Part shown: positions 24,213 through 59,596 of the stretch, one piece after another
How the letters are laid out: each line of letters opens with the position of its first letter
Position numbering within the stretch: the stretch's first letter is position 1
Source: an uncultured bacterium
Lineage (GTDB): Bacteria > Armatimonadota > Hebobacteria > CAIYQO01
Length of the DNA: 64,000 nt
Direction of reading: 5' to 3'
Assembly (NCBI GenBank): GCA_964472305.1
Contig: CAYYJR010000017.1
Span: forward strand, 27,975 to 91,974
Notes under the pieces: model-generated
Database searches by the model: none
Told to the model about the DNA's origin: nothing
What the model saw: only the letters and a program-made list of their open reading frames with translations
Position numbers and translations under genes: made by a program

Positions 24213-24222
24213 TTCCGCTTGC

Positions 24223-36112: not shown

Positions 36113-36211
36113 ACTTTGTTCCTTCCATCAGCAGTGATGCCGTAGCAACATCGCAAATTCTTCGACCCCCGCTATTGCACTCCTTCTTTTCCCGGCTGTC
36201 CGCGTGTGTTT

Positions 36212-36391: not shown

Positions 36392-36407
36392 CTCGCTCCT
36401 TGCAGAA

Positions 36408-37866: not shown

Positions 37867-37955
37867 TATTCCACTAAGCCGAAGCGGAAGCCCCTGCTGT
37901 TGCCGCAGCGGTCAACGCGCACAAGAGAAAAGAATTATAACAGCAAATACCGTCG

Positions 37956-41483: not shown

Positions 41484-41527
41484 TTACCATGCCAGCACAA
41501 GCTGTATTATAATCTGATCCGCATCAG
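41484..41527 (+). promoter_or_regulatory. Promoter-operator cassette (site a): TTACCA-N18-TATAAT then CTGATCCGCATCAG
   Basis: Same -10/operator fusion as sites b and f. Operator at 41514..41527. No plus-strand gene lies downstream; it reads antisense into the PIG-L gene. Confidence 0.5.
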
Positions 41528-41603
41528 TATGGTATCAACCACCTCCGGGCTTGTCAATAGCGTGCACAGGATACCCTGCGGTATCTACCTGGCAAAATTC
41601 GCG

Positions 41604-42455
41604 TTAGGAGCGATACAGACGCCGGTCCTCCGGCAGAGCTTGCACGAAATCGGGTGGACCAGCCCAGGGATTGGCCGAAGCTCCGCTTGCCTGCCGGAAC
41701 GGTTCGGCATATTCGACCCCGATCAACTGTCCGTATGCCCGTGCCCGGTCGGCGGCAAAGGTGCCGACCAGTCCCGACGGGAACTGGCTCCGATAGCAAT
41801 CGATCGCCGCCTGTTTGCTGGCGATATCATCCCCGGTCAGTTCTACGAAGCAGTTAGGCGCGAATCCGGCGATCGGTCCCCAACTGCCCGGCTCCCAGAA
41901 ATACAGGTCGATCGCCTCACCACGGGCCTGGCGCTCACTGATGACCAACTCGATGAAACGCGCAACCGCGTAATGATCGGGATGACGGTCGTCGGGTGAA
42001 TGCGTGAACACCACGCGTGGCATCCATTCATCCAGCAAGCGCGTGAGCCGATCACGGCAGACCGGAAAGCGATCTGCGTTGGCCACCGGCGGCAATCCAC
42101 GAAAGATGGCGGGGCTCATCTCCTCCAGCAAAGCCAGATAGCTGTCGAATGCCGGATAAATGCGTCCCTTGGGTTCCGGCGTGCTGAAGTAATAACTCTT
42201 GAATCCCAGCCACTCCACGCGGGCAGCCCCGATACGGGTCGACGCCTGTGTCGTCTCATGGTGCTGCGTCGCAAGCGCCTCCGCGGAGTTCGCCACTGAA
42301 AAGTGCGCCCCCGTGTAATCGTTTTGCGCCATAACGACCCAGCAGCCGCGCTTGCCTTCCCGCGTCAGGCGGGCGAAGGTGCCGGCGCAACGCAGGTCGA
42401 TGTCGTCGCAATGGGCACCGATCGCCATGAAAGTCTGGATATCCGCGAATGGCAT
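41604..42455 (-). CDS. PIG-L/LmbE family N-acetylglucosaminyl deacetylase
   Basis: AIGAHCDDIDLRCAGT (AHPDD-like), HSPDDRHPDHYAV (HPDH). 283 aa. SD GGAGGAG. Confidence 0.8.
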   Translation of the reverse strand: MPFADIQTFMAIGAHCDDIDLRCAGTFARLTREGKRGCWVVMAQNDYTGAHFSVANSAEALATQHHETTQASTRIGAARVEWLGFKSYYFSTPEPKGRIYPAFDSYLALLEEMSPAIFRGLPPVANADRFPVCRDRLTRLLDEWMPRVVFTHSPDDRHPDHYAVARFIELVISERQARGEAIDLYFWEPGSWGPIAGFAPNCFVELTGDDIASKQAAIDCYRSQFPSGLVGTFAADRARAYGQLIGVEYAEPFRQASGASANPWAGPPDFVQALPEDRRLYRS

Positions 42456-42475
42456 AGGCTCCTCCGGACGTCCTA

Positions 42476-45400
42476 TCAGTGAATCAGCAGGACATCGCCG
42501 TCATCGAGCTTCTTTAGCGTCACGATAACGTCTGCGCCATCGCGCATCACCGGCAACACGGTGTCCAGCGCCACGGATGTGACCTGCGTAACCTGTCCGG
42601 AATCGCGCAGGCGGATAGTCACATTCGTCTGCGGTACCAGCGCGCCGCCTTGATACGCCCAATTCATCAGCGTCACCGCCTGGCGCCCGGTCTCCCTATT
42701 CTGTAACCGGATACCTTCAATCAGCGGGTGTGAGGCATCGACCACCGGATACACCCCGGCTGCCTGCAGCGGGTTGGTCACGAATCGGCGTTTCTCCGCC
42801 TGGTAATCGGTGGCCATGTTATACGTGCCCTTCATGTTATCTACCGCATACTCAAGTCCTGCGTAGAAACCGACAACGTAGACGGCACCTTTGCCATGCG
42901 GGTGGCGCGTCACCGCCGCCCCACCGTCGGGATAGCGGGCCAGCACCTCGGTGCCAGGCGCCGGGTCCAGCACCTCGCGCCCAAACACCAGCGGCACCTT
43001 CTCGCCCGTCACCCCCGACGGTGCCATCCAGGTGACTGCCGCGGTATTGGCCGGCGAATCCTTCACCTTCCGCGGCCCACCCAGGCCGACGGCACCGTAG
43101 CGCCCGCTGTCGGCCCACACATCCACCGTGCCGCGACTCTTCAATCCGAACACCGGCAGCAGCGCAGTGAGCGGTTCAGCGGCTTCATCACGGGCCAGGC
43201 CGCCGCCATTCGTATACAGGATACCGCCCGCCGCCACCCATTGTGCCAGACGCGCCGCGACGTCCCGTCTGAGGTGAGAGCCGCTGAGGTAGATCACTTT
43301 GTAGCGTGACAGATTTTCGCTCATCAGAAAGCCTTCGTCCAGCGGATCGACCGGGATGTGTGCATGCTGGAGGGCGGTATAGATCCATTTCCCATTCTCC
43401 CAGGAATCGTTGTTTTCATAATACTCCGACGTCAGGGGGCGCACCACCGCGACTTCGGCCGGCCGTGCCCAGTCGGCATCGTAGATGACATCTTCCGCGG
43501 CCCCGATAAGCCGTGCCGCCCGGCTGCAACTCTTCAGCACGTCTAGATTGCCGCCAAAGCTGTCACCCTTATACCATTCCGGCCCGTAGGTATACCAGTA
43601 GATCAGTGTGCAACGGCGACTGACCGCCGCCAACGCGCGTTGCACGGGAGCGCCGCGATGCGGCTTGACGTAAATGCCAAAGCGGTGGCCAAGTTTCGCG
43701 TTCAGGATGCGGCCTACGTCGCACAGGTAACTGTCCCACTGCCAGATGCGCGGATCGCGATTGGACGTTTCATACATGAATCCGTTATCGGCATGACGAT
43801 AGAAATCGAAGAAGTCCAGGCTGTGTCCACCCAACAGAAAGGTGTTGCCACGTAACGCATACATGTAGAGCCAGGGGTGTTGCGCTTCCGGCGCATCGAG
43901 GCGTCCCTCGACCAGTGCCCGGCGCTTCTTCTCGTTTTCCCGATTAAGGGCATCGCGCGTGTTGCAGTATCGTTGCGCCGTCACCTCGTTATTGAAACGG
44001 CGCGAGTAATAATATAGCAGGTTCCAGCCGCGTTCGGAGAGCCGGTGTCGGGATTTCGTCGGTTCCACGGATTTGGTGGGCGATGTGACTGGCTGAGTCG
44101 TGTCGTTTTCGGCTTCCTTATCGGTCTGATCGATCGCCGTGATCTCCGGATCGAGCGGGAGCATTGTACCGCCTTCCACCGGCATCACCCCGTTTTTCAG
44201 CATCTCGGGATCGAGCGACTGCTCATACGCTTCCCAGGCGTCTGTTCTCTCCTGCTGCTGCTGGCTCCAGGTTTTCGCAAAGTAGCCGTAGGTGCAGCGG
44301 ATGTCATCCCAACTCGGCGCGCCGAAGTCGTCCAGTGTCAGGCCGAAACTTTTCACATAGTCCTGGAAGGCTTTCCGGCAGTAGGGGCAGCAGCCCATAT
44401 GTTCCTTGCCTTCCGGCGCGCCATCAAACACCGAGCCGATCTCATCCGCGGTGAGCGCCCAGATCTCGTCCACCCCCTCTGACCGAACCTTCTGTATGAA
44501 TTGGTCAACTTCGGCCTGGGCTGCCGCCGCACGCTGCTCGACCGGGAAATAAGTCGGACACCCACCGCCCGGTGGCACAGTTAAAATTTTACGGGTGAGC
44601 GGTTCGCGCTGCAGCGGGACGATGGGATAGCCTCCCAGGCCGCCGGTCAGTGATGCACGGTTGAATTGCAAACCAAGCCCTTCCCGCTGGTTAACCAGGT
44701 CATTGATGAAGCTGGGGATGGCCCGAAAACCGTTACAACCGATCTGCCGCAAAATTTGCGCTTCCGCAAGCATCGTGTCCCGGCTCGTTGTACGTATCCC
44801 ATACCCACTACCGACGCCATAACCGCCACAGTCCGTGACGAAGGCAAATTTCTTCGGCAAGGGTTGATGAGCCCAGGGCACCTGCGCCAATACATCGACT
44901 TTGCGCTGGGCATATTGTTGCAATCCGCCCAGCGCATTAATAAAGTATTCCGACGGACTGCCGTCTTTATTCAATCCCCACATCGGTATCACGATGCCGA
45001 TGGTCGGGCCATCCGTGCCAGCCTCGGTGAATCGTTTGATGACAGTGCCCGCATAACTGAATTCAAATTCAACCAGCAGGTTGCGGAGGGGTTGCGGCGC
45101 CGTTGTCGGCTTGATGGGTTTCCCGTCAATCATCACCGTAAGGAAGAGAAAACGGCTATTCTTGAACGTGGAAATCGGCACCACGGGCGACCAGGCTCCC
45201 GGTGTCAACCAGTAGTAATCGAGGAGTCTAGCTTTATCATGTTCAATCATCACGCCGGGATCCGGGGGGGGCGCATCATCGCGTAACATATCGTCTCCCA
45301 GCGAATCTTCCGGGACATCAGGCTCCTGCACTGGCACCGCGGTGAGTTCACCGCGCACCGGATTGCCGCCCATCCCTTCACCACCCCAGCGCCAAAAAAT

Positions 45401-45562
45401 GCGTACCTGGTAGTTGGCGGGGGTCATCTGCACCACTCGTGCGCGCATGGTGACTTGCGCGCCGGTGGCGGTCGCCGGCAGACCGCTGGTGAATCCGAGC
45501 AGTAGCACGGCGATCCCGCACCAGATCAGTTTTAGCCTGCTCAAGAGTAGCTGCATGCGCAT
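42476..45562 (-). CDS. Large secreted GH42-like protein, paralog 2
   Basis: Signal or TM segment LIWCGIAVLLLGFTSGLPATATG. Motifs shared with paralog 1: VRIFWRWGGEGMGG, CPYCRKAF, WYTYGPEWYKGDSF, ALQHAHIPVDPLDEGFLMSENLSRYK. Confidence 0.65.
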   Translation of the reverse strand: MRMQLLLSRLKLIWCGIAVLLLGFTSGLPATATGAQVTMRARVVQMTPANYQVRIFWRWGGEGMGGNPVRGELTAVPVQEPDVPEDSLGDDMLRDDAPPPDPGVMIEHDKARLLDYYWLTPGAWSPVVPISTFKNSRFLFLTVMIDGKPIKPTTAPQPLRNLLVEFEFSYAGTVIKRFTEAGTDGPTIGIVIPMWGLNKDGSPSEYFINALGGLQQYAQRKVDVLAQVPWAHQPLPKKFAFVTDCGGYGVGSGYGIRTTSRDTMLAEAQILRQIGCNGFRAIPSFINDLVNQREGLGLQFNRASLTGGLGGYPIVPLQREPLTRKILTVPPGGGCPTYFPVEQRAAAAQAEVDQFIQKVRSEGVDEIWALTADEIGSVFDGAPEGKEHMGCCPYCRKAFQDYVKSFGLTLDDFGAPSWDDIRCTYGYFAKTWSQQQQERTDAWEAYEQSLDPEMLKNGVMPVEGGTMLPLDPEITAIDQTDKEAENDTTQPVTSPTKSVEPTKSRHRLSERGWNLLYYYSRRFNNEVTAQRYCNTRDALNRENEKKRRALVEGRLDAPEAQHPWLYMYALRGNTFLLGGHSLDFFDFYRHADNGFMYETSNRDPRIWQWDSYLCDVGRILNAKLGHRFGIYVKPHRGAPVQRALAAVSRRCTLIYWYTYGPEWYKGDSFGGNLDVLKSCSRAARLIGAAEDVIYDADWARPAEVAVVRPLTSEYYENNDSWENGKWIYTALQHAHIPVDPLDEGFLMSENLSRYKVIYLSGSHLRRDVAARLAQWVAAGGILYTNGGGLARDEAAEPLTALLPVFGLKSRGTVDVWADSGRYGAVGLGGPRKVKDSPANTAAVTWMAPSGVTGEKVPLVFGREVLDPAPGTEVLARYPDGGAAVTRHPHGKGAVYVVGFYAGLEYAVDNMKGTYNMATDYQAEKRRFVTNPLQAAGVYPVVDASHPLIEGIRLQNRETGRQAVTLMNWAYQGGALVPQTNVTIRLRDSGQVTQVTSVALDTVLPVMRDGADVIVTLKKLDDGDVLLIH

Positions 45563-45602
45563 TTCGATCTCTCCAGAACTGCCACCAAACGCACCGGCAT
45601 TA

Positions 45603-48026
45603 TCAAGCGGTGCCGTTCACTGTTTCGTCTTGCGGGACGCTTGCCGGCACCGGCATCGCTGCCAGAGCATACGAATAGAGATGCATCAACTCACCGAGAG
45701 AACAAACGATTTTCGCCCGCTGGGTGCTGTTCAACGCCAGATGGCGCGGTACGTCGAGGGGACCATCACCACCGATCTCCTCCAACTCCGCCCAGGGAAC
45801 CGTGTAAGCGAGTACTCTGGCGACTGCCTCGCGGTAGCACGGCATGCCTGTCCAACGCCAGGTGCAGGCGGCGAATGGGAGTGCGCCAAACAGATCTGGC
45901 GGATGCGGCGATGTTGGCGGCTCTCCCAGCAGGCTCAGGCACAGGTCGACATGCCGCTGGATCGCCTGTTTCAAAGGAGTATCATCCAGCAACTCGGCCA
46001 CCTCGACCATAGTCTGCTGCGCGCCGAACAGGTAGAAGAAGAAATACAGTCCTTCCATCGTCTGGTCATCCAGGATGGGTTCCCCTTCGCCGGTGGCGAT
46101 ATTGATGTGCACCGACCGCACGATATGCCCGTCCTCGCGCACGCCCCGCGCGAAGACATCGGCCATATTGCGCAGCACCCGAAGATCCTCCACATCCCCC
46201 GTCAACTCGTATTTCACCATCACGCCGGTGAAGGACGAACTCATTGAGGGCGCGGTGCCGTTGGTACGGTCATAACTCTGATAGACGTCCACCGTATTCA
46301 TGATGACTTCGCGCGTCCACGGGTCGCCGGTCAGATAATACTGTAAGCGCTTCACCAGCGGCATGCTGACGCGCCATTCCTTGTCGCGGCATCCCCAGTG
46401 GTTGACGTTGTGGCGTGTGCCGCAGCCGCGGAAGTTGCCGCGATGATACATATCAATATCCCGATTATGCCGCGTCATCTCGATGCAGGCATTCACCCAG
46501 TCGGTCCGTCCATGCCGCAACGCCATCAGCCACAATCCCCAGTCGGGCAGGCATTCGGTGTTCAGCCAGGCGTAGCCGCCGTGATCGAATCCCCAGCGGT
46601 CCCATTCCCGGTAATAGGACATCTGCAGATCGCCGAAGTGCATCAATCCATACCAGCCGCGCACCTCGCGCTCGTGAATGAGGAAGTCGGCCAGCCGGCA
46701 CAACAGCGCCTCCTGTGCCGTTTCCGTCGGGGCGCCGATGGGACCCAGCGCCTTGCTGGCAACCAGGTGCGCCGGTGCGGTGATGCACCGCGCCGGGTGA
46801 GCGAAGGCCTGTCCAACTTCCGCCGCGCGGGTGTCGCCGGCGGGGTGGAAATAGAGCATCAGTTCACTGGTCTTGGCGATGCCGGTCGCCCCTTTCGCCT
46901 GCGCCTCGAAAGTCATGCCGGATTCACCGTATTCATACATGGCGCTGCCATAGACGATCGGCGAGTAGCGGCGCAGGTCGAGTGGTTCCGCCTCGGGCGG
47001 GATGAGGCCGAAGGTCAGGTTGCCTGTGTCGGTGTCCAGCGATAACGCGCGCGGGTACTCCTGCCAGAAATACCGCATGCCGGCAGTCAGGCCACCTTGA
47101 TCCGTGCCCAGGTGGCACCACCCCGTGGCGCGCTGCCCCTCCCTGGCTTTCGTCCAGGACGCCGCGTCGCACGTGCGTTTCTCGGTGCGGTAAAACGTAG
47201 AGCCCAATTGCACCTGGCGGGCCTGCGGCCAGCACGGCCCACCCTCATACGGCAGCACCACATCCCAGTACCCCGGTCCACGATCGTTGGCAAATCCATA
47301 GCGGGCGCCTTCGCCATGGAAGGTGCCATGCGCGGTGAGGGTGAGCTCGGTCACCAGGTCATGATCAGGATCACCCAGGTAGATGAAGACCGGCTCGATG
47401 CCGATGCGGCGAGATTCCCGCAGCACTTCGATGAAGACCACCAATTCGGCAACAAGCCGGTCGCCTTCGACGAAACGGCCGGGCAAGCGGAGCACGGCGC
47501 GGTTGGAGGAGAGCGTGACTACCTGCACCTGCGCGGGATCGAAGGTCCACGCCACCGCCGGACGCGCCGGTCCGCCGGGTTCGGTGAGGCGCAGGATCGC
47601 CGTCAGGCCCGGACCATGCAACAACGAGTCCGTGCCGTCTCGGACATCGAGCACGCGGTCGGGGTTCGCCATCACCTGCACGGTCAACGCACCGCCGGTG
47701 ATCGTCACGCTGCCGTGGTCTCTCGCCGCCTGCAGACCGGATGCCGGCTCCATGGGGGTGGGAGCGAGCAGCAGATCATTCCGCCGGCCGCCGGCAAGGT
47801 TCACCGTCCCGCACAGGTGCAGCCATTTCACCGAACCGTCGGGCCAGTAGGCAGCAGGCACGCCTTCCCAGAGCGCGCTTCCCCCCGTTTCGTCCAGCAC
47901 GGTGAACCAACCGCGCGCATGGATCGCGCCGCGAGGCAGCGGCATGCCGCCCACCACCGGCTCAGCCGCGCGATCAATCCCGCTGGTCTCCTCGATCCAG
48001 AAACGGATCGGTGAAAATGCACTCAT
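45603..48026 (-). CDS. Conserved hypothetical 807-aa protein (beta-sandwich N-terminus plus helical toroid; possibly a YetA-like polysaccharide lyase or hydrolase)
   Basis: WPDGSVKWLHLCG, RYFWQEYPRAL, GWYGLMHFGDLQMSY, NTECLPDWGLWLMALRHG. First gene of an operon with 42476..45562 and PIG-L. The function call is tentative. Confidence 0.5.
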   Translation of the reverse strand: MSAFSPIRFWIEETSGIDRAAEPVVGGMPLPRGAIHARGWFTVLDETGGSALWEGVPAAYWPDGSVKWLHLCGTVNLAGGRRNDLLLAPTPMEPASGLQAARDHGSVTITGGALTVQVMANPDRVLDVRDGTDSLLHGPGLTAILRLTEPGGPARPAVAWTFDPAQVQVVTLSSNRAVLRLPGRFVEGDRLVAELVVFIEVLRESRRIGIEPVFIYLGDPDHDLVTELTLTAHGTFHGEGARYGFANDRGPGYWDVVLPYEGGPCWPQARQVQLGSTFYRTEKRTCDAASWTKAREGQRATGWCHLGTDQGGLTAGMRYFWQEYPRALSLDTDTGNLTFGLIPPEAEPLDLRRYSPIVYGSAMYEYGESGMTFEAQAKGATGIAKTSELMLYFHPAGDTRAAEVGQAFAHPARCITAPAHLVASKALGPIGAPTETAQEALLCRLADFLIHEREVRGWYGLMHFGDLQMSYYREWDRWGFDHGGYAWLNTECLPDWGLWLMALRHGRTDWVNACIEMTRHNRDIDMYHRGNFRGCGTRHNVNHWGCRDKEWRVSMPLVKRLQYYLTGDPWTREVIMNTVDVYQSYDRTNGTAPSMSSSFTGVMVKYELTGDVEDLRVLRNMADVFARGVREDGHIVRSVHINIATGEGEPILDDQTMEGLYFFFYLFGAQQTMVEVAELLDDTPLKQAIQRHVDLCLSLLGEPPTSPHPPDLFGALPFAACTWRWTGMPCYREAVARVLAYTVPWAELEEIGGDGPLDVPRHLALNSTQRAKIVCSLGELMHLYSYALAAMPVPASVPQDETVNGTA

Positions 48027-48080
48027 CTGTCACCCTCTGGTCCAGCTTTGCCATACCCGACGTCCGATTCCGGCGCTTGT

Positions 48081-48124
48081 CTGATACGCGTCAGAATAGT
48101 ATCGCTTCACTCTGTGACTGTCAA
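48081..48124 (-). promoter_or_regulatory. Promoter-operator cassette (site f): minus strand TTGACA-N17-TACTAT-T-CTGACGCGTATCAG
   Basis: Operator at 48081..48094. About 60 nt upstream of the ATG at 48026. Confidence 0.7.
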
Positions 48125-48334
48125 GAGGTTTGGGCGTGAGTAGCGGTTCACCGTTGTCAGTGCTCGATTCTCGGTTATTAGATCCGGCGCAACCGTGAAC
48201 TATGTCGGACAGATTCAGTGCAACCGACCTGTGCCGGGCCATTCCACCGGCGGCGAATCGTGATGATCGCCAAGGTGGTGGGTGCCCACCGACACATTGC
48301 CGGTAAGGTGTACCGGGCAGGAGGCTGCACGGCA

Positions 48335-49396
48335 TCACCAGACGCGCTTGATCAATTTGGGCGCGGGACCCTGGGATCTCCGTTTGACGATAGTGCAGGG
48401 GAGAATAAAATCCCGCTGCTCTGACTCGTCATCCTCGTCGACGCGGTGTGCGAGTATGCGCTGTACTACCTCGACGATCTGGTGTGTGGGAATTTCGATG
48501 GTGGTCAGCGGAACGCAGGCATACTCGCCCGAGTCAATGCCTTCGAATCCCACAACAGTGATGTCCTCCGGCACCCGGACGCCGGCGTTCGTCAAGGCAT
48601 AGATCAAGCCGATCGCCTTCATGTCATCCGGCATCATGATCGCGGTACAGGCGTGGTCCTGCATCAGCATCATCACCTGGGACAACAACTGGGCGCCGCG
48701 CGCATAGCCGTTATCGGTGGTCAGCCCGGTTTCATCAATGGACAGCAGCGTGACGGCGCGTTCGTCCTCGGCCATCTCCCCGAAGTGGCGTCCCTTCACA
48801 TAATCGGTAATGGCAACGACGCGATGGCCGGAGTGGAGGAGATGGCGCAGCATGTTATGGAGCGCGCCATGGCGATCGAACCCGATGCGGTAGCAACGGG
48901 GGAAGGAGACGTCGGGCAGCTGATACACGCCAAACAGGTAGTCAATCAGGAAGAGGCGTCGACCGCGCATCATCGTAGAAAACTGGGGGGTGGACAGGCA
49001 GGCGTTGATCAAGTTGTTGCCCAGCACGATTACGTCGTTGACTTTCCGTCCTAGCAGGTTGCGCACCCCGGGCAGAAAGGAGTGCAGATCAACAGCCTGG
49101 AAGACCGGCATGATCTCGGTCTCATACAGCATCTTCAGCAGCAGGAAATACATCGTGTGCTGGCTTTCTGTCAAGGCGTTGGATTCATTGCTGATGAGAA
49201 TACCCACCTGGTCTGTTCGCCCGGCGGCCACCCGGGAGGCGTTCAGATCCTTGACGTAACCGTGTTTCTCGGCATACGCCAGGATACGCGCCTGCGTCGC
49301 CTTGGAGATGCCGTAGCGATCAGCCTTGCCGTTCAAGGTTACCGAAACGGTGGTATAAGATATCTTCAAATCGTGGGCAATATCCACTAAACGCAT
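48335..49396 (-). CDS. LacI family transcriptional regulator
   Basis: N-terminal HTH MRLVDIAHDLKISYTTVSVTLNGK...SKATQARILAYAEKHGY, followed by a periplasmic-binding-protein-like sugar-binding core. 353 aa. Confidence 0.88.
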   Translation of the reverse strand: MRLVDIAHDLKISYTTVSVTLNGKADRYGISKATQARILAYAEKHGYVKDLNASRVAAGRTDQVGILISNESNALTESQHTMYFLLLKMLYETEIMPVFQAVDLHSFLPGVRNLLGRKVNDVIVLGNNLINACLSTPQFSTMMRGRRLFLIDYLFGVYQLPDVSFPRCYRIGFDRHGALHNMLRHLLHSGHRVVAITDYVKGRHFGEMAEDERAVTLLSIDETGLTTDNGYARGAQLLSQVMMLMQDHACTAIMMPDDMKAIGLIYALTNAGVRVPEDITVVGFEGIDSGEYACVPLTTIEIPTHQIVEVVQRILAHRVDEDDESEQRDFILPCTIVKRRSQGPAPKLIKRVW

Positions 49397-49405
49397 ACGC
49401 GTCAG
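49392..49405 (-). promoter_or_regulatory. Operator-like site g overlapping the regulator's own SD/start codon
   Basis: Minus strand AAAAGGAGT-CTGACGCGTATGCG-TTTAGTG. 12/14 identical to site f; the ATG of the LacI gene lies inside it. Confidence 0.5.
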
Positions 49406-49878
49406 ACTCCTTTTCTGCGCCAGTCATCTGACAGGCAACAGGTAGTACCCGTTTTATGGCACTAACGATATATATGTCACAAGTTTTTAGCGATTTTGTC
49501 AAGTCGAACAATTATTCAATCTCGATTAAAACAGTCAATGACATGCTCTTTTTAGTATTTCTACCAGCATATTACCGTGGGTGGCGTATTCTGGTGCCAA
49601 CGATACCGTACGCGTCGCAAATACCGGCTTTTCGGTGCTTAGACCACCGCTGCCCGTGTTGACGCTCCTTACATGGCTACTCTGCGCAACTTTCGGCGCC
49701 AGGTATTTGCTGCGAGTCGAGTGTTGACATTCCATCCAACATACAGAATCGTCCCTTCGGCGATATAGCTACGCTGCTGTTGCGCTCGTCTCCGAACAAG
49801 TGATTCGCGAAGCGGATTCCTGTTGATCCTATCCTCGGCAGAGTCGCCGGCGTGCGGAACGATATCCTGACCGGAGGA

Positions 49879-49921
49879 TTGACAAGAGGGGGAACCTGCG
49901 GTATAATCTGATGCGGGTCAG
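49879..49921 (+). promoter_or_regulatory. Promoter-operator cassette (site b): TTGACA-N17-TATAAT-CTGATGCGGGTCAG
   Basis: Consensus -35 and -10 boxes. Operator at 49908..49921 covers the predicted TSS. Drives the 50102..52432 gene through a 5' UTR of about 190 nt. Confidence 0.75.
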
Positions 49922-50101
49922 ATACCGATGAAATGATCTGGGATCAAGGAGCAGCCCGGAGTTGGCGGTACCCGCCTGGAAGGTATGAGCGAGACATAGG
50001 CCGGGAACAGGACAGGCCCTTGATCGACACAGCGGTGTTGGGAGCGCATGGCGTTTTGCCGCTGGCATGCTTCGCGGATCAGGCCTATCTTAAGGATCAT
50101 A

Positions 50102-52432
50102 ATGAATGAAATTAATTATGATGTGTGCGAATCGCACACTGCTTTACCCCACTTGGGGCGCGTCAACCTGATGCGGCTGGGCGACGAGGAACCTGCCGGC
50201 TTATGGATCACCTCACTGCCGGTGCCGCCCGGGGCCGACTACGCAATGAGCCTGAACGGTCGCTCCACCTATGTTGAACCCCTCGGAGCCTGGCCGGGAC
50301 GGACTACTACATCTCCGCGCCGTCTGCTGCTGGTGGCAGATGGCGAAGAAACCGCTCCACCGACGCTTGCCCTCGCCCATGCGGGCGCCGCACCGGCAAC
50401 CCCGACTCCAACGACGGAAATGGAGCTCATCGCGCGTGCGCCACGCAAATTCTTCATCTGGGAACAGCACGGCCTGCGGATCGACTGGGGGGATCAGTCG
50501 GTACTCCTCGCACTCGGAATGCACGTGGACGACACGGTGCACTGGTGGGAGAACTGCCGACTCGTTACCGTGGCGGAGTCGCCCGTCTGCCGTACCGTCA
50601 TGATGTCCGGCGCCATTCCATCTCACAAGGTGAATCTGGATCATTTCAGCCGACATCACGGGTATACGGACCCGTTCCTCCATCAGCATAACTGGATCTA
50701 CGGGCAGATTTATGCCCGCCTGTATGCCAATGGCGTCTGTGAAATTTTTGCCCGGCATATCAACAGCCGGTATGTCGATCTCGGTCAGGATCTCACGAAC
50801 GCTGTGCCGGTCTTCGGCCTGCGCACCCCGGACAGCATGGCCGACATGGACGCGCTGTCCGGGCGCTGGGATGGAACACGCACTGCGCTCACTCTGGGCG
50901 GCGTCCGCTTCGACGTCACCGACATCGCGCACCTGGCTACGCCTGAACAACCCGGGCAGATGGCGGTAGTGGACGGCATACTCGCCTGGCAACCGTATCT
51001 GGGGATGGAGCTCTTCGGCGGTGTGGCACCGGAGCAGATTACCGGCGATGCCTTCATCATTCACGCCGAAGATCGGACGATCCCTCGCGGCATGGCCCGC
51101 AGCCTGCGCTGCTCGCTCAGTCTGAATCCTGCCCGCTCCCCGCGCGTGGCGCGCTACCTGGCGCCGGCATGGTGGTACGGCTTGTGCGAAGAGCTTTCTC
51201 CCGCGCCCCTGTTGCCGGTTGACAACGCATTTTCGCCCTATCTGGACCAACATCGCCAGTGGTTCCGCGCGTGCACGCAGCAGCAAGGATTTGAAGACGG
51301 CTGTGTCCCGCGCCAAGCAGCGATTGGGCAGGCACGACGTCCCGAGCCCGGCTGGGAAGGCGAAGTGCCCGGCGCCATGTTCCTCTGCGCATGGCGCACC
51401 GGCGATGCACTCGACTACGACCTGGCTATGCGGGCGTCCTACGCCTTTACCGACATTTATGTGAACCATGCCGATAAGGGCGTGCGCATGCACGGGCAGG
51501 CGCCGCCGGCGATTTCGCTGCCGATGGCGCGCGTTCACGGCTGCGTGCTTGCGTACCTGGAGACAGGAGACCCGTACCTGCTCGATACGGCGCGGGCAGT
51601 CATCGAGAATAGCTACTGGCTGCATAAGAACGCCTGGCCCCGATTGTCTATCGGTCGCGACGCCTGCTTTGTGCGCGGGGCGGTGTTGCTTTACCGCTAC
51701 CTGAACGAGACACATTTCCTGGAGATCGCCCGGGAGTGCATCCGGACGATCGGCCAATCGCAATTCCCCGATGGCAGCTTTGGCGATCAGGGCGGCGGCA
51801 CCGGCATCCACGGCAGCAACTCCTATGTGGTTAAACCCTGGATGGGCAGCATGGCCGTCGGACCGGTTATCGACTACCTGGAGCTCTACCCGGAGGATAC
51901 AGCGGCGCGCGCCATCGTGCTGAAATTTGCCGATTGGTTGCTTCGTGAACGCGTCGAGCATGCACCGGGCATCCGCTCCTGGTCCTATCAGCATTTTTAT
52001 GCCGGCATGCGCGAGCATTTCCGCCCTAATACCGGCCAATATATTATCCTGCCCGACAGGATCCCCTGGTGTGGCGATTATTTGGCGCGCATCCTGCCAT
52101 TCTGCTCCCTGATCACCGGCAATCCGGCCTACTTCGATGCCTGGGCGGAAGCCTTCAACGGCAAACTACATGCCAGCAAGAAGACACGTCTGGAAGGCGG
52201 CGACCATGCCACCGCGCAGGCCTGGCAATACATCCCCTGGGTACAGCAGCGTATCTGGCAAGCCACGCAAACCCCGGAAGGCGTGCAAATCGCCCCAACC
52301 TTTTTCAGCCCCAGCACCCCGCGTGAGGGCACCGTGCTAACCCCCGACGGTCCGGTGGAGGTTACCTGGAATGGCTCTGACATCGAGATGCTGGTCGCCA
52401 CGGATCCGGAGCAACACCCGGCGCCCACCTGA
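50102..52432 (+). CDS. Conserved hypothetical 776-aa protein (beta-rich N-terminus plus (alpha/alpha)-toroid-like C-terminus)
   Basis: Start ATG 50102 follows AAGGA. Helical-repeat C-terminal half (GDPYLLDTARAVIENSYW, RGAVLLYRYLNETHFLEIAREC, DGSFGDQGGG). No signal peptide. Confidence 0.5.
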   Translation: MNEINYDVCESHTALPHLGRVNLMRLGDEEPAGLWITSLPVPPGADYAMSLNGRSTYVEPLGAWPGRTTTSPRRLLLVADGEETAPPTLALAHAGAAPATPTPTTEMELIARAPRKFFIWEQHGLRIDWGDQSVLLALGMHVDDTVHWWENCRLVTVAESPVCRTVMMSGAIPSHKVNLDHFSRHHGYTDPFLHQHNWIYGQIYARLYANGVCEIFARHINSRYVDLGQDLTNAVPVFGLRTPDSMADMDALSGRWDGTRTALTLGGVRFDVTDIAHLATPEQPGQMAVVDGILAWQPYLGMELFGGVAPEQITGDAFIIHAEDRTIPRGMARSLRCSLSLNPARSPRVARYLAPAWWYGLCEELSPAPLLPVDNAFSPYLDQHRQWFRACTQQQGFEDGCVPRQAAIGQARRPEPGWEGEVPGAMFLCAWRTGDALDYDLAMRASYAFTDIYVNHADKGVRMHGQAPPAISLPMARVHGCVLAYLETGDPYLLDTARAVIENSYWLHKNAWPRLSIGRDACFVRGAVLLYRYLNETHFLEIARECIRTIGQSQFPDGSFGDQGGGTGIHGSNSYVVKPWMGSMAVGPVIDYLELYPEDTAARAIVLKFADWLLRERVEHAPGIRSWSYQHFYAGMREHFRPNTGQYIILPDRIPWCGDYLARILPFCSLITGNPAYFDAWAEAFNGKLHASKKTRLEGGDHATAQAWQYIPWVQQRIWQATQTPEGVQIAPTFFSPSTPREGTVLTPDGPVEVTWNGSDIEMLVATDPEQHPAPT

Positions 52433-52441
52433 TCCGGGATC

Positions 52442-52489
52442 ATCACGACGGTCGAGCGTGCGTCGAGACACCCCCCCGACCGTCGTGAT
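52442..52489. terminator. Perfect 13-bp inverted repeat between convergent genes (candidate bidirectional terminator)
   Basis: ATCACGACGGTCG-(22 nt)-CGACCGTCGTGAT, starting 10 nt after the stop at 52432. Confidence 0.5.
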
Positions 52490-52571
52490 TGCGCTCCAAG
52501 GCACTGAAGGACTGCGAAACATCTTGGAACTCCGGTGGTACATTCACCGCAGAAAAGCGGCACCGACTTGA

Positions 52572-53861
52572 TCACTCACAGGATGTGCCGACCATGCCGC
52601 GGACAACCGCCGTCAACCGCGGCAAGTCCGATGGAGTCGCCTGCCCGCCCGGCGCCGCCCAGGAGACGCCTTGTTGCGACGGGAAGCGACCGGTGCCGAT
52701 AAAGGTCAGGGCGATCTCGGTGAGACCGTCGATTCCGGTCGTATGAATCTCTGGATGCTGTGCCATTTGCTCTATCTTACACGCTGACCCCGGCACGGAG
52801 ACAATGCGCCCGGCTGCCACGTAAGCCAGGTTGTTGAGCAGCACGAAAGGTCGCGTGTCGTCCAGGCGGATAAGCGGACGGTTTGCCTCACCGCGAAGAT
52901 AGGCAAAATATTGCCGGATATTCGCGCTCAAACGATGCTCGACCGCCACCGGGATGCGCTCACATCGCCCATCATTCCACTGCACCGTGAATACTTTATT
53001 CGGGTGACCGTCCGGCCCGGATTCTTGTTGTCCGGTAATCGTCGCGTGCTCGCACTCCACCCACTCCTGGTCATACGGCGTCCCGTTGCATGCGTGCGAC
53101 ATCGCCAGCAACACCTCTGGTCCATTTTCCAGCGCCGCGCGGACGAAGATGGTATCAGTGCCTTCAATGGAGTTCGCCCGATAGAGTTCCGCCGTGACGT
53201 CATTGATCTGTCCCCACTGCCAGTCTCCATGCAGGCCTCCCCAGAACAGCGCACTGTTGACGGCGTGGGCCATCGCATTGCCCATCACGGAATCCAGCAC
53301 CAGGCGTTCATCGAGCATCAGCCGTCCCGCCCAGGCAGCACGGGCATAATACGAGGACGGCCGTGGTGACATCCCCACCATGCTGATCCGCCGTATCGCA
53401 CCGAACTCTCCCGCAACCAGGCGCTGCTTCAACGCCAGTCGCGCTCCCTCGCCAATGTAACTGAATCCGACCATGGTGTCGCGCGTTGCCGTCGCCTCCA
53501 CGGCCAGCATGCGGAGCAATTCGTGATAATCAAGCGTCGGCGGTTTCTCGAGGTAGACGGGCAGTTTCCGCGTGACGCACGCCTGGTGCATCGGCGCATG
53601 CAATGGAATCGGGGTTGGTATGGTCACCACATCCAACGAATCTCGATATGCATCGAGCATGACCAGGTAATCGGTAAACAGGCCTATGCCGCGCTCGGTA
53701 AAGCGCAACGCGCACTGCCGCTCGCTAAATGTCTCCATATTGGGATCGCAGGCGCATACCAGGCGGCACGCGCCTTCCGCCTCCAAGGCGAGAATGGTGT
53801 CATGGTGATATCCGGCAAATCCACCCATGCCGATGATGCCGATGCGTATGGGATCAGACAT
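52572..53861 (-). CDS. Gfo/Idh/MocA family oxidoreductase
   Basis: IRIGIIGMGGFAGYHH Rossmann N-terminus, YLEKPP (EKP motif). 429 aa, 28 nt downstream of the CRTAC1-like gene. Confidence 0.8.
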   Translation of the reverse strand: MSDPIRIGIIGMGGFAGYHHDTILALEAEGACRLVCACDPNMETFSERQCALRFTERGIGLFTDYLVMLDAYRDSLDVVTIPTPIPLHAPMHQACVTRKLPVYLEKPPTLDYHELLRMLAVEATATRDTMVGFSYIGEGARLALKQRLVAGEFGAIRRISMVGMSPRPSSYYARAAWAGRLMLDERLVLDSVMGNAMAHAVNSALFWGGLHGDWQWGQINDVTAELYRANSIEGTDTIFVRAALENGPEVLLAMSHACNGTPYDQEWVECEHATITGQQESGPDGHPNKVFTVQWNDGRCERIPVAVEHRLSANIRQYFAYLRGEANRPLIRLDDTRPFVLLNNLAYVAAGRIVSVPGSACKIEQMAQHPEIHTTGIDGLTEIALTFIGTGRFPSQQGVSWAAPGGQATPSDLPRLTAVVRGMVGTSCE

Positions 53862-53889
53862 TCGCTACTCCTTCACGAACTCAAATATC

Positions 53890-55512
53890 TCAATCTGCTG
53901 TCACCCTGGAGTCCAGTGACGGCACCGGACCAAATTCCACCAGTAACTGCTGGTTCACCTTTACCTGTGGCAGCACCTTCTGCTGTCCCTGCCAGGTTAC
54001 CACCAGATCGCACGCGGTGACGGCACCCAATCCCAGGTGCGCCAGCGCCTCTTCCCCGGTGGCATACCCGTTGCCGATAGACAGGTCATACCGCGCGAGA
54101 AGCGCGGTGGCTTGCCCGGCCTGCCCGGTCCGATAGGCGCGGATAATGGCCCCGATACCCATGGGATTGAAGCCCGGCCGCGTCCCTTTCACATGTACCT
54201 GCAACCAGTTGCCGCCGGGGGTCATGTTGCGCAAAGCCAGGTTGGCGGTCTCATCGAACCAGGCGGGCAAGATCAGGTCCAGCCGTCCGTCCCGTTCCAG
54301 GTCGACTACGGCGCCGGGGGCGTAATAACACAGGATGCGCTCGACGGGGGGCACCGCGAACTGCGGCACACCGGCGGGATTGTTGCCCAGATTGCGCAAG
54401 ATAAACGGGCATGACCGATCATTCTGATCCGCATACAGCATACTCAGCGCGACATCCAGTCGACCGTCGTTATCCATATCGCGGAGCGCCACTTGCGCAC
54501 CTTTTATGATGCTGCGCGTAATGGGGCTGGTCGGCGGAAAGACCACCCGTCGAATCTCTGTGAACTGCGGCACGCCGTCTTGGATGCCCCGGTTCTGATA
54601 AATGAAGATCATGCCGGGTTGCCCATGCACGGTAATAACCAGGTCAAGTAAATCGTCACCGTTCAGATCGCCAAATACTGCACCGCAGGGCCACCATTCG
54701 CCTTGTGCCTTTGGCAACACCAGTTGCCAGCGGTTCTCTGCCGAACGGTACTGACCGGTTGGCCCACTAACAAAGAGACGGTTCGCATGCGCGACGAAAA
54801 TATCCAGCGTACCATCATTGTTGACATCGGCAAGTGCGAGTCCCAGCGCCGTGGTATCCTCGAGCGGAAAGCCTAATGTCTCGGTGACATCGGTAAACGT
54901 CCAGTTTCCTTCATTGCGTAGAATATGCAGCCGATTCTTGAGTGGATCGCGATAGGCGCCATCGGAGAAAATCAGGTCCAGCAGTCCATCGCGGTTGAAA
55001 TCCAGTACCGCGATATTGCGCGTGGAAACGGTGGTCAACCAATCAGGCGGTTGCGGCGTTGCATCTCGAAATCGTCCCTGCCCCAGATTTTCGAACAGCA
55101 TACTCCGACAAGTTTGCCGATTCACATGGTTGCCCACTACCAAATCCAGGCGCCCGTCGTTATTCAAATCAACGAAAAGCGCCATCGTGGTGCGTGCCTT
55201 TTTTCCGATCAGGAAGGTAGTGTCATCCGGTGAAAGCGTAAAGCGTCCGGCGGTGTTGAGAAACAACATGTTCGGTAGTGGAGCGCCAGGTTGCTTGAAT
55301 AGCGGACGGTCAGCGAAGGCGCCCAAATACAGGTCGGGCAAGCCATCGCCCGTGCAATCGCCCACCGCGATGCCGTGGGCTGTCCGCCATGCCTGCAAAG
55401 GCTCGGATAATCCGAGTTGACGCGTGACATCTTCAAAGATGAATTGTGCTTGCGCCAGTGACGCGAGCAGCAGGATACCCAGCCAGCTACACAATCGGTA
55501 TTTCACCCGCAT
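53890..55512 (-). CDS. CRTAC1/ASPIC-UnbV family protein with FG-GAP/VCBS repeats, secreted
   Basis: Signal peptide MRVKYRLCSWLGILLLASLAQA. Repeats NNDGRLDLVVGNH, NRDGLLDLIFSDG, NNDGTLDIFVAHA, NGDDLLDLVITVHG, DNDGRLDVALS, ERDGRLDLILPAW. UnbV_ASPIC-like C-terminus. The GTG at 55506 (7 nt after AAGGAG) is an alternative start. Confidence 0.8.
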   Translation of the reverse strand: MRVKYRLCSWLGILLLASLAQAQFIFEDVTRQLGLSEPLQAWRTAHGIAVGDCTGDGLPDLYLGAFADRPLFKQPGAPLPNMLFLNTAGRFTLSPDDTTFLIGKKARTTMALFVDLNNDGRLDLVVGNHVNRQTCRSMLFENLGQGRFRDATPQPPDWLTTVSTRNIAVLDFNRDGLLDLIFSDGAYRDPLKNRLHILRNEGNWTFTDVTETLGFPLEDTTALGLALADVNNDGTLDIFVAHANRLFVSGPTGQYRSAENRWQLVLPKAQGEWWPCGAVFGDLNGDDLLDLVITVHGQPGMIFIYQNRGIQDGVPQFTEIRRVVFPPTSPITRSIIKGAQVALRDMDNDGRLDVALSMLYADQNDRSCPFILRNLGNNPAGVPQFAVPPVERILCYYAPGAVVDLERDGRLDLILPAWFDETANLALRNMTPGGNWLQVHVKGTRPGFNPMGIGAIIRAYRTGQAGQATALLARYDLSIGNGYATGEEALAHLGLGAVTACDLVVTWQGQQKVLPQVKVNQQLLVEFGPVPSLDSRVTAD

Positions 55513-55548
55513 GCTCCTTTCTGATCGGCACACTGATCTGGATTGCCG

Positions 55549-55999
55549 TCATCCTCTTTTCCCAGATCGATCACGATGGTCGTTTTCTCCGCGAGACTGC
55601 CCGGGGCATGGGACCGTCAAACCGCCAGGATATTCGCACCGGGATGCACGGTATTGGTCACGTCGCCAGGAACGTGCCGGTCCACTCGGTGCGGGGACGG
55701 TTGTTGGGTCCGTTCGCCAGCCGGTTGTTGCGATAGACCATGGCATCGGAAGGCAGCACGGAGAAGTACACCGCAATGCGCCCGTGCTGCTCCGGTACGG
55801 TAAAGGCGCACAGAATCGCGGGCAGCGACTGATTGGTGGTGGGCGGCGTGGTGTAATCCGCGCAGGCGTAGAAAGTCGGCACCGAGTCGGGGAGACTTTG
55901 GCCACTTCGGTGGAACTGGCGACCAGGCTTGCGGTGGGTTTCAACGTATTGTCCTCGCTGGTGAGGCTGGCTGCCAGGAATACAGGACAGGATCACCAT
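55549..55999 (-). pseudogene. Decayed pseudopilin-like (DUF1559 / H-X9-DG type) gene remnant
   Basis: The 113-aa frame has very high GC3 (...SLPAILCAFTVPEQHGRIAVYFSVLPSDAMVYRNNRLANGPNNRPRTEWTGTFLAT*). It continues in other frames as ...VHPGANILAV* and FDG..., that is, an H-X9-DG-like motif broken by frameshifts. No prepilin N-terminus. Confidence 0.4.
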
Positions 56000-56004
56000 A
56001 AAAT

Positions 56005-56046
56005 CTGACGCGTATCATATTAGCACTGGATCCCCCCATTATGCAA
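56005..56046 (-). promoter_or_regulatory. Promoter-operator cassette (site e): minus strand TTGCAT-N18-TAATAT overlapping operator (plus-strand read CTGACGCGTATCAT)
   Basis: Operator at 56005..56018. Would drive the remnant, CRTAC1 and oxidoreductase unit. Confidence 0.55.
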
Positions 56047-56117
56047 TCCTGTGGATAAATAAACTGCCGCCGGTTTACCAACAAGGAGATACCACGACCG
56101 ACGAAGAATCATGTAAC

Positions 56118-56131
56118 CTGATGCGCATCAC
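56118..56131 (+). promoter_or_regulatory. Operator site d (CTGATGCGCATCAC), 21 nt upstream of the MatB-like start
   Basis: 13/14 match to the palindrome consensus. No strong -35/-10 pair was recognised upstream. Confidence 0.55.
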
Positions 56132-56151
56132 GCGGACAGGGGGAGCAGGTC

Positions 56152-57684
56152 GTGAATCAGAATCTGTACCAGCGGTTCGCCGGACAATTCACACCGGTGA
56201 TGAAAAAAGTCGTACTCACCACGGAAACCGATGAGCGCTACACGTACCACATGCTGCACACCCGCAGTGCGCAATACGCCGGCTACTTGTTCCGGTGCGG
56301 CATCCAACCCGGTGACCGGGTGATGGTTCAGGTTGAGAAATCGGCGGAGAACCTGTTTTGCTATCTTGGCTGCCTGCGGGTTGGCGCGGTATATGTCCCG
56401 CTCAATACCGCATATCACCCCAATGAGGTGGCCTATTTCATCCGGGATGCTGCGCCGTCCCTGCTGATCTGCGATCCGGCGAGGGCCGCGGAGATGCGGG
56501 TGCTGGGAACTGAGCATGGCGACATCCCCGTCGAGACGCTGGATCGCCAGGGCCGCGGCTCGCTCTATACCCACAGCCTTAGCGAGGATGGCGACTGGGC
56601 GGACGTCCCCCGTGCCGTCGACGACACGGCTGTCATCCTCTATACGTCCGGTACGACCGGCAAGCCGAAAGGCGCTATGCTTACCCATGGGAATCTTGCG
56701 ACCAACGGCGCTACCCTCCAGCAGTGCTGGGCTTTCTCAGCCGACGATGTCTTGCTCCACATGCTGCCGCTTTTCCACGTGCACGGCCTGTTCTTCGCCT
56801 GCCATTGCGTGCTGCTCAGCGCGGCCAGCATGATCTTCCTACCGAAATTCACCGTGGATTACACCCTGCAGTATCTGCCTGCCGCCACGGTGATGATGGG
56901 CGTGCCCACCTATTATACGCGGTTGCTGGACGACAGTTGCTTTACCCGGCTGTGCGGTGACCATATCCGCCTGTTTATCTCCGGCTCGGCGCCGCTGCAG
57001 CCGCAGACTTTCACCGCGTTCGCCGACCGAACCGGCCAATGCATCCTTGAGCGATACGGGATGACGGAAACCGGAATCAATACCGCAAATCCGCTGCAGG
57101 GGATACGCAAGCCCGGTACGGTCGGCCTGCCGCTGCCCGGCGTCACCGTGCGCATCGCCGATGCCGAAGACCGACCACTCGCACAAGGCGAGATCGGCCA
57201 GATACAGATTCGCGGATCCAATGTCTTCGCGGGATACTGGAATAATCCGGCGAAAACTGCACAGGATTTCACCGCCGAGGGGTTCTTCCGTACGGGCGAT
57301 ATCGGCAGCGTCGATGAGGATGGCTATCTCACGATTAGTGGACGTGCAAAAGACTTGATTATCACCGGCGGATTGAATGTCTACCCCAAAGAAATCGAAT
57401 TGTGCCTCGACAGTCTTGACGGTGTTGTGGAGTCCGCTGTGATCGGCCTTCCGCACCATGATTTCGGTGAAGCCGTGACCGCGGTGGTCTGCACACAACC
57501 GGATTGTCACATCAACGAAGCCGAGATTATTGAGATATTGCGCGGACAGTTCGCGCACTTCAAAGTGCCGAAAAAAATTCTCTTCATCACTGCACTCCCG
57601 AAAAACACGATGGGGAAAGTGCAAAAAAATCTGCTGCGCGACCAGTTCTACGACCTGTACCAGACCAGCAATTTACTGGTCTGA
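56152..57684 (+). CDS. matB: Malonyl-CoA synthetase-like acyl-CoA ligase (AMP-binding family)
   Basis: VQVEKSAENLFCYLGCLRVGAVYVPLNTAY closely resembles the rhizobial MatB N-terminal block as I recall it. AMP motif YTSGTTGKPKGAMLTHGNL. GRAKDLIITGGLNVYPKEIE. GTG start after GGGGGAG. Confidence 0.7.
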   Translation: MNQNLYQRFAGQFTPVMKKVVLTTETDERYTYHMLHTRSAQYAGYLFRCGIQPGDRVMVQVEKSAENLFCYLGCLRVGAVYVPLNTAYHPNEVAYFIRDAAPSLLICDPARAAEMRVLGTEHGDIPVETLDRQGRGSLYTHSLSEDGDWADVPRAVDDTAVILYTSGTTGKPKGAMLTHGNLATNGATLQQCWAFSADDVLLHMLPLFHVHGLFFACHCVLLSAASMIFLPKFTVDYTLQYLPAATVMMGVPTYYTRLLDDSCFTRLCGDHIRLFISGSAPLQPQTFTAFADRTGQCILERYGMTETGINTANPLQGIRKPGTVGLPLPGVTVRIADAEDRPLAQGEIGQIQIRGSNVFAGYWNNPAKTAQDFTAEGFFRTGDIGSVDEDGYLTISGRAKDLIITGGLNVYPKEIELCLDSLDGVVESAVIGLPHHDFGEAVTAVVCTQPDCHINEAEIIEILRGQFAHFKVPKKILFITALPKNTMGKVQKNLLRDQFYDLYQTSNLLV

Positions 57685-57804
57685 ACAGGGTAGACCGGCA
57701 ACTTCCGCAGATGAAGATCAAGCTGTAAACGAAGAGCCTGCTCCGCAGGCCAGCATGACGTGTTCCGTGGTGCAGAGCTGCCCCCGCTTCTTTCCCAGGA
57801 GCTA

Positions 57805-57855
57805 TTGACAGCTATCGGCACGATGGATAAACTATTATTATCTGATGCGTATCAG
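57805..57855 (+). promoter_or_regulatory. Promoter-operator cassette (site c): TTGACA-N17-TAAACT, operator CTGATGCGTATCAG 8 nt downstream
   Basis: Operator at 57842..57855 (13/14 palindromic). About 160 nt upstream of the BNR_4 gene. Confidence 0.65.
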
Positions 57856-59426: not shown

Positions 59427-59596
59427 TGGTCACCCGGGCATCGAAGCCGGTATCTCGTCAGACACACCTTCTGGCAGGCACCGCCATTCAGGCGGAGCCT
59501 GCCAGAAGTACGGAAAGGCATACGGGCGGCATTGGATAACGCGCTGCATTCGCGCATGGATGAATCACTGGCTTTGATCACACAAGGAAGGTCAAC

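Follow-up and report, generated by a model that had tools for sequence, protein, structure and literature searches.

The 64,000-nucleotide (nt) stretch of DNA analyzed here (the window) comes from an uncultured bacterium (contig CAYYJR010000017.1 of assembly GCA_964472305.1), which homologues of its threonyl-tRNA synthetase (ThrRS) place in the Armatimonadota. On its minus strand, at 48335..49396, the window encodes a LacI-family regulator of 353 amino acids (aa), in which a DNA-binding domain resembling that of Cra/FruR is joined to an effector domain that resembles periplasmic binding proteins. Around this gene lie predicted glycan-degrading enzymes, and a 14-bp palindrome recurs in the DNA between them. 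A preliminary description had listed seven copies of the palindrome, here called a to g, and each of the seven sequences was found at its listed coordinates and strand. It had also proposed a LacI-family regulon with stereotyped promoter-operator cassettes. That proposal is supported by the enrichment of the motif, by its geometry relative to promoters, by synteny, and by covariation between operators and regulators in orthologous loci. We therefore consider it highly likely, on sequence grounds, that the palindrome is the putative operator of a LacI-family repressor encoded at 48335-49396.

Of the seven sites, a through f are strong. All six are 14-bp palindromes built from the half-site CTGAYRC, with C7-G8 at the center. 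The exact pattern CTGAYGCGNATCAG occurs three times in the window compared with 0.01 expected, and with up to two mismatches it gives 18 strand-hits compared with 4.9 ± 2.2 expected, a count reached in none of 100 shuffles. With leave-one-out scoring by a symmetrized position weight matrix (PWM) over the ~64,000 window positions, these six sites scored 18.9 to 23.6 bits and took ranks 1 to 6. First-order Markov simulations predict 0.09 hits of at least 18 bits per 64 kb, versus the six seen. By our gene calls, intergenic DNA makes up 11.8% of the window, and it contains all six strong sites. In an unbiased repeat search of 41.0-58.2 kb, the top direct-repeat family consisted of the -10 and palindrome shared by a, b, and c, and f/e formed the second inverted pair. 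Similarity among the sites of this family ends after ~29 nt, too early for copies of a longer mobile element.

To place the sites relative to promoters, an independent sigma-70-type promoter scan covered 40.9-58.1 kb. It returned nine promoter-like sites in ~17 kb, five of which abut operators a, b, c, and f (a on both strands); four of these five promoters next to strong sites have a perfect TTGACA-N17 -35 element (at a, b, c, and f). Operator b (CTGATGCGGGTCAG; 49908..49921, plus strand; 20.1 bits, leave-one-out rank 5) abuts, with a gap of 0 nt, the -10 hexamer of a TTGACA-N17-TATAAT promoter (49879..49907, plus strand) that precedes the gene for a 776/794-aa protein. This promoter matches the consensus at 12 of 12 positions, the only one in the scanned region to do so. 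Operator f (CTGACGCGTATCAG; 48081..48094, minus strand; 21.7 bits) is separated by one T (1 nt) from the -10 of the TTGACA-N17-TACTAT promoter (48096..48124, minus strand) of an operon that begins with a PcRGLX-like gene. The cassettes at b and f thus have the form first described for them. Operator a (CTGATGCGGATCAG; 41514..41527, minus strand; 22.0 bits) lies one A (1 nt) past the minus-strand -10 of a TTGACA-N17-TACCAT promoter (41529..41557, minus strand) directed at genes for a 1005-aa protein, a beta-helix protein, and an oxidoreductase. Operator c (CTGATGCGTATCAG; 57842..57855, plus strand; 23.6 bits) lies 8 nt past the -10 of the TTGACA-N17-TAAACT promoter (57805..57833, plus strand) of a BNR_4 gene. 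Operator e (ATGATACGCGTCAG; 56005..56018, minus strand; 18.9 bits) faces FG-GAP and oxidoreductase genes and overlaps by 2 nt a possible -10, TAATAT (56017-56022), the -35 of which (TTGCAT, 56041-56046; spacer 18) is poor. Operator d (CTGATGCGCATCAC; 56118..56131, plus strand; 20.5 bits) ends 20 nt before the GTG start of an AMP-binding gene.

As had been proposed, five sites (a, b, c, e, and f) overlap a -10 box or follow it by no more than 8 nt, starting -2 to +8 nt from the end of the hexamer. Relative to the predicted start sites, all five occupy the range of about -10 to +20 of a sigma-70-type promoter in which steric hindrance is expected. This geometry puts the expected start point within the palindrome or at its edge, which would correspond to the classical layout for repression by occlusion. 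Around operator a, -10-like hexamers occur on either side: TATAAT (41508-41513, plus strand) abuts the palindrome, and TACCAT is 1 nt off on the minus strand. The plus-strand combination, TTACCA-18-TATAAT (gap 0 nt), would transcribe antisense into the neighboring PIG-L gene.

The genes downstream of the operators form six units. Behind operator f, target operon 1 (41604..48026, minus strand) comprises genes for a PcRGLX-like (PL26-like) protein (45603-48026), a 1028-aa GH42M-like protein (42476-45562), and a PIG-L deacetylase (41604-42455). The PcRGLX-like protein matches the PL26 exo-rhamnogalacturonan lyase 5xqo, and orthologues of the operon occur in four of the orthologous loci described below (L003, L005, L006, and L051). 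Behind operator a, the probable target operon 2 (35003..40973, minus strand) would comprise genes for a 1005-aa GH42M-like protein (37956-40973), a beta-helix/rhamnogalacturonase-like protein (36408-37790), and a GFO/IDH/MocA oxidoreductase (35003-36112). Target operon 3 (52572..55533, minus strand), faced by operator e, contains an FG-GAP/ASPIC gene (53890-55533) and a second GFO/IDH/MocA gene (52572-53861). Pfam assigns the gene behind operator d (56152..57684, plus strand) to the AMP-binding (acyl/aryl-CoA ligase-like) family. Operator c precedes a unit (58014..60667, plus strand) of a BNR_4 (GH145/PL42-like) gene (58014-59426) and a gene for a 356-aa protein of no assigned family (59597-60667), which are presumably cotranscribed. 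Homologues of the BNR_4 protein with solved structures include GH145 proteins (5muk, E = 9e-73) and the PL42 L-Rha-alpha-1,4-GlcA lyase (7esk). Together, the PL26-like and GH145/PL42-like targets suggest a regulon for a rhamnose/uronic-acid glycan. The substrate is probably a rhamnose- and uronic-acid-containing glycan, and the effector is probably one of its breakdown products.

The gene behind operator b (50048..52432, plus strand) has no Pfam family, and its product has no solved relative by sequence. Its open reading frame (ORF) encodes 794 aa, and the database entry of 776 aa corresponds to a start at 50102. The family counts more than 200 homologues at E ≤ 1e-20 in Armatimonadota, Kiritimatiellia, Lentisphaeria, Planctomycetota, Verrucomicrobiae, and Clostridiales; this uncharacterized family probably acts on glycans. 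Judging from signal-peptide-like N termini and from orthologues, the longest-ORF starts of 37956-40973, 50048-52432, and 53890-55533 are probably too far upstream, with the true starts near 40775, 50102, and 55512, respectively.

The regulator has the features of the LacI/GalR family: a helix-turn-helix (HTH), the hinge residue, a type I effector domain, and an even palindrome with a central CG. In Pfam, its effector domain matches PF13377 (Peripla_BP_3) at 69.7 bits, and its HTH matches PF00356 (LacI) marginally, at 27.7 bits with a cutoff of 27. The best full-length solved relative is CcpA, to structures of which residues 3-341 align (E = 1e-15); the core alignment to CcpA and PurR extends through residues 341-346. 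For the DNA-binding domain alone, the best match is Cra/FruR, to which residues 1-71 align without gaps (E = 5e-8), including a three-residue GKAxxY insertion after the recognition helix. Val56 aligns with the hinge Leu of CcpA (...ARGLAS...) and Cra (...AAGLRAG...), is V, I, or M across the clade, and would contact the central base pairs. In the recognition helix, Val19 takes the place of the Arg in the CcpA sequence ...VSR.... Pfam scans of all substantial ORFs gave no other DNA-binding regulator, in agreement with the initial view that this is the only recognizable one in the window.

Searches for relatives delineated a small, divergent clade seen only in metagenomes. Among 5.8 billion database clusters, eight representatives have 34-63% identity to the regulator and the rest have 33% or less; five more copies, at ~32-50% identity, were found only on fetched contigs. 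No orthologue was detected in 185,579 species genomes; the hits there were limited to distant LacI proteins (~25% identity) and to Bacteroidota proteins matching the DNA-binding domain alone. These last proteins occur in many Bacteroidota metagenome-assembled genomes (L013-L037) and match only residues 3-73 of the regulator, at ~41% identity. The Cra-like HTH, GKAxxY insertion included, is thus also present in these genomes, where it is probably joined to another kind of effector domain.

To follow the regulon in other lineages, we collected loci from the contigs of the regulator clusters, from a metagenome scan, and from orthologues of the neighboring 79x-aa gene. The 12 fetched contigs yielded 10 distinct site-bearing orthologue loci, L001/L002 and L006/L007 each being the same locus from different samples. 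In these loci, orthologous regulators (32-63% identity, all metagenomic) adjoin orthologous target genes, and synteny is retained: the 79x-aa protein (71% identity) is again encoded divergently from the regulator, and the PcRGLX-like and 1028-aa proteins are each conserved at 66% identity. In L001/L002, the locus with the closest regulator (63% identity), the perfect site CTGATGCGCATCAG lies 4 nt past TTGACG-17-TAATAT, CTGATGCGAGTCAG lies past TTGACA-17-ATATAT, and CTGTTGCGCGTCAG lies in the leader of the regulator gene itself. Where the regulator is ~48-50% identical (L005, L006, L007, L011, L051, and L053), the site is CTAAYSCGNGTTAG, positioned 0-13 nt past the -10 box of TTGACA-N17/18 promoters, and it precedes the 79x-aa gene, the PcRGLX gene, an N_methyl gene, and the regulator gene. 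At 34-42% identity (L008/L009, L010, and L039), CTAAAYCGYATTAG takes the same promoter position before the regulator gene. Most orthologous sites are 14-bp palindromes with a C7-G8 center, and the 15 sites of the orthologous loci start -2 to +13 nt from the end of a -10 hexamer accompanied by TTGACA-N17/18. Orthologous target genes therefore carry the same promoter-operator scaffold at the same place, so the phylogenetic footprinting that had been suggested as a check comes out in favor of the regulon.

Operators also precede genes for prepilin-type N_methyl/DUF1559 (SBP_bac_10) proteins in three of these loci (L001 1786-3111, L005 11677-14579, and L051 12734-15698). No homologue of these genes was found in the regulon region of the window, indicating that regulon content varies between lineages.

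Autoregulation takes a less clear-cut form in the window. Site g (CTGACGCGTATGCG; 49392..49405, minus strand) is present over the regulator ATG as first described; it is weak, with a single good half-site (8.4 bits leave-one-out, rank 16), and it was not seen in the closest orthologous locus, L001. The conserved autoregulatory counterpart is instead a degenerate site in the regulator leader, CTGTTGCCTGTCAG (49428..49441, minus strand; 8.4 bits), which aligns with CTGTTGCGCGTCAG of L001. Regulator-proximal sites in five loci (window 49428-49441, L005 9937, L006 1917, L011 64, and L051 9807) have a CC/GG center in place of CG, which suggests a conserved, weaker self-repression.

Operator sequence and recognition helix change together across the clade. 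Val at residue 19 goes with CTGA...TCAG arms and Leu with CTAA...TTAG arms; at residue 14, Tyr goes with T/C at operator position 5 and Gln with A. The CTAA type is strongly enriched in its own loci (8 strand-hits versus 0.08 expected in L005; 6 versus 0.04 in L006). Neither type was found in DNA of the other clade: the CTGA type was absent from the CTAA-clade loci, and the CTAA type from the CTGA-clade loci. A hybrid site, CTGATGCGTGTTAG, lies in L052, 1 nt past TTGACA-17-TAGACT and before the 79x-aa orthologue, and the same sample also yields an intermediate regulator, P0003 (...VAVTLN...). One possible but doubtful reading is that the clade preserves a natural, stepwise switch of repressor-operator specificity, from Val19/CTGA through P0003 and the L052 hybrid to Leu19/CTAA, with residue 14 reading position 5. 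If this were true, the clade would provide a minimal natural model of specificity change in a LacI-type repressor that keeps regulation intact throughout, and it would also flag an uncharacterized rhamnose/uronate-glycan pathway with a widespread, family-less 776-aa protein. Two further repeats were observed in L052: about five tandem copies of a ~75-80-nt unit at 11365-11800, upstream of the FG-GAP orthologue, and a run of GTGAGTA-like heptamers at 9485-9600, downstream of the 781-aa gene.

Much of this arrangement is familiar from local LacI-family sugar repressors. The survey by Ravcheev et al. (2014) covers 1,303 LacI-family regulators, with motifs that are almost all even palindromes with a central CG, 72% autoregulation, and ~90% local sugar regulators (PMC4052901). 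Like them, the window regulator combines an HTH, a hinge, and a type I periplasmic-binding-protein fold, and shares sites near promoters of carbohydrate genes, a regulator gene inside its regulon, and probable autoregulation (PMC4052901). There are differences as well: the motifs of the survey are mostly 16-22 bp long, whereas the conserved core in the window is 14 bp, and the lineages named in the part of the survey drawn on here are Firmicutes and Proteobacteria, without Armatimonadota (PMC4052901). In the literature searched, we found no description of a LacI regulon in Armatimonadota, and searches with the motif strings gave irrelevant matches only.

Among individual proteins, Cra/FruR of Enterobacteria and Vibrio (PDB 8jff, 7x7h, and 1uxc) has the closest solved DNA-binding domain. 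The Cra box, RSTGAAWC|SNTHHW, shares its half-site register with the window motif, with C/G-T-G-A at -7 to -4 and C at -1 (PMC5829826); the two differ at -3/-2, which is Y-R in the window motif (CTGAYRC) and A-W in Cra (sTGAAWC). The motif had been described as unlike the classical TGnAAnCGnTTnCA LacI/GalR/PurR box, and its register does differ from that box, although it is the same as that of the Cra/FruR box. Together with the Cra-like DNA-binding domain, the shared register makes the motif a variant inside known LacI-family diversity. The regulator is nonetheless not a Cra orthologue: Cra structures match only its residues 1-74, and its core is nearer to CcpA and PurR. Its targets are glycan-degrading enzymes, unlike the fru operon and central metabolism controlled by Cra, and nothing suggests that it has an activator role such as that of Cra. 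CcpA of Bacillus (PDB 3oqo and 1rzr) likewise places a hydrophobic hinge residue over a central CG. It differs from the window regulator by a 3-residue indel in the DNA-binding domain and in being a global regulator that needs the corepressor HPr-Ser-P. In the cre box, TGWAANCGNTNWCA, the TG lies one base further from the center than in the window motif.

From these comparisons, we infer the following mechanism. A repressor dimer would bind the palindrome with one HTH on each half-site and with the hydrophobic hinge residue Val56 placed over the central CpG. In four to five of the units, the bound dimer would cover the transcription start and block open-complex formation or promoter escape; operator d, which lies next to a ribosome-binding site, would probably serve as a roadblock. 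The two weak leader sites would provide mild autoregulation. The repressor would be released when a carbohydrate, probably derived from breakdown of the rhamnose/uronic-acid glycan, binds as effector to the C-terminal sugar-binding fold. Release would then induce ~13 genes in six units, among them those for the PL26-like, GH145/PL42-like, beta-helix, GH42M-like, PIG-L, GFO/IDH/MocA, and 776-aa family proteins.

Several observations weigh against this reading or parts of it. For operator d, the promoter scan found no recognizable promoter abutting the site. Operators a and e lie ~745 and ~500 nt, respectively, upstream of the probable start codons, across apparently noncoding DNA, and their target assignment is less secure because of this distance. 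In these two leaders (40776-41513 and 55513-56004), the longest ORF tested in each (41043-41396 and 55549-55944) has no Pfam family, the remaining short ORFs were judged noncoding by eye, Rfam gave no match even with the E threshold relaxed to 1, and no similarity was detected to N_methyl/DUF1559 or other operator-controlled genes of the orthologous loci; the intervening stretches may be long leaders, decayed genes, or unrecognized RNAs. Both autoregulatory sites in the window are weak, at 8.4 bits each. An unrecognized regulator could also be hidden among the several window proteins that belong to no family. In L003/L004 (55% orthologue) and L040/L041 (32%), neither motif type was enriched in the DNA examined; for L003 this was 21 kb, and the promoters of its convergent target operon lie outside. 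There are few residue/base correlations, and phylogeny confounds them; L052 and L003 are linked only through a shared sample.

The alternative that best withstands the evidence, though we regard it as improbable, is that another transcription factor encoded outside the window binds the palindrome and that the LacI-family gene is merely one more regulated gene. Binding by the LacI-family protein is an expectation from homology, and the window ORFs without a Pfam family and the absence of the motif from the 21 kb examined around the 55% orthologue in L003 leave room for such a factor. However, the motif and a LacI orthologue occur together on short, independent contigs from many samples, and in at least eight distinct loci the motif lies in the promoter of the regulator gene itself. 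The motif type also changes along with the recognition helix of the LacI-family protein, which points to this protein, and not one encoded elsewhere, as the partner of the palindrome, and the even palindrome, central CG, and register fit a Cra-like DNA-binding domain (PMC5829826 and PMC4052901).

Less likely still, the palindrome could function in the transcript, where a small hairpin in the 5' leader would affect stability or translation, rather than as a DNA site for a protein. Any palindrome can fold, pairing is maintained through the G-to-A and C-to-T changes that separate the clades, and sites c and d lie inside probable transcripts. The predicted hairpins are marginal, however, at 0 to -3.6 kcal/mol, and their would-be loop, the central CG, is the most conserved part. 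With start positions taken from sigma-70 promoter geometry, transcription at b, a, f, and e and in L005a, L006a, L039, and L010 would begin inside the palindrome and leave its 5' arm untranscribed, and sites within a genome conserve sequence beyond what pairing alone requires. The least probable explanation is that the sites have no dedicated regulator and arose by chance or by duplication or movement of a promoter cassette: although the -10 hexamer and palindrome recur jointly as a 29-nt direct-repeat family, the spacers and flanks are unrelated, the -35, the -10, and the palindrome persist at orthologous promoters of diverged genomes despite drift in the spacers, and motif counts and Markov simulations exclude chance.

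Under the favored reading of a LacI-family regulon, the system is very probably an ordinary type of gene switch, a local LacI-family repressor with promoter-overlapping operators, and it leaves the understanding of LacI-family regulation unchanged. It would provide a concrete regulon for an uncultured Armatimonadota lineage, with one repressor, six operators, and ~13 genes, and would link the 776-aa family (Armatimonadota and the PVC [Planctomycetes-Verrucomicrobia-Chlamydiae] phyla) and two ~1000-aa GH42M-like proteins to a pathway with enzymes that act on rhamnose-uronic acid linkages. Linkage to the PL26-like and GH145/PL42-like enzymes narrows the biochemical hypotheses for these uncharacterized proteins. 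The covarying operators point to two candidate specificity residues in the Cra-like domain, which could aid the engineering of orthogonal LacI-type switches. The main interest lies in this natural operator/recognition-helix covariation series and in the grouping of uncharacterized enzymes.

Weaker matches occur elsewhere in the window. As previously noted, a look-alike, ATGATGGGCATCAG (22382..22395, minus strand; 15.6 bits with a six-site PWM; center CC), is present on the start codon of a GFO/IDH/MocA gene (21217-22395) with a beta-helix gene (19277-21097) downstream of it. It may be a weak outlying operator or a chance match, given that ~0.2-0.5 such hits are expected per 64 kb. The perfect palindrome TTGATGCGCATCAA at 34802-34815 lies inside the gyrA coding sequence, scores 12.3 bits, and was treated as chance (~1.2 hits expected). 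A 16-bit PWM match at 24145-24158 was not counted as an operator, being part of a thiamine pyrophosphate (TPP) riboswitch (24115-24217, minus strand; 73.5 bits) upstream of thiC (22665-24098). A tRNA gene (26053-26124, plus strand; 67.5 bits) lies between murC and a gene for a tetratricopeptide repeat (TPR) protein.

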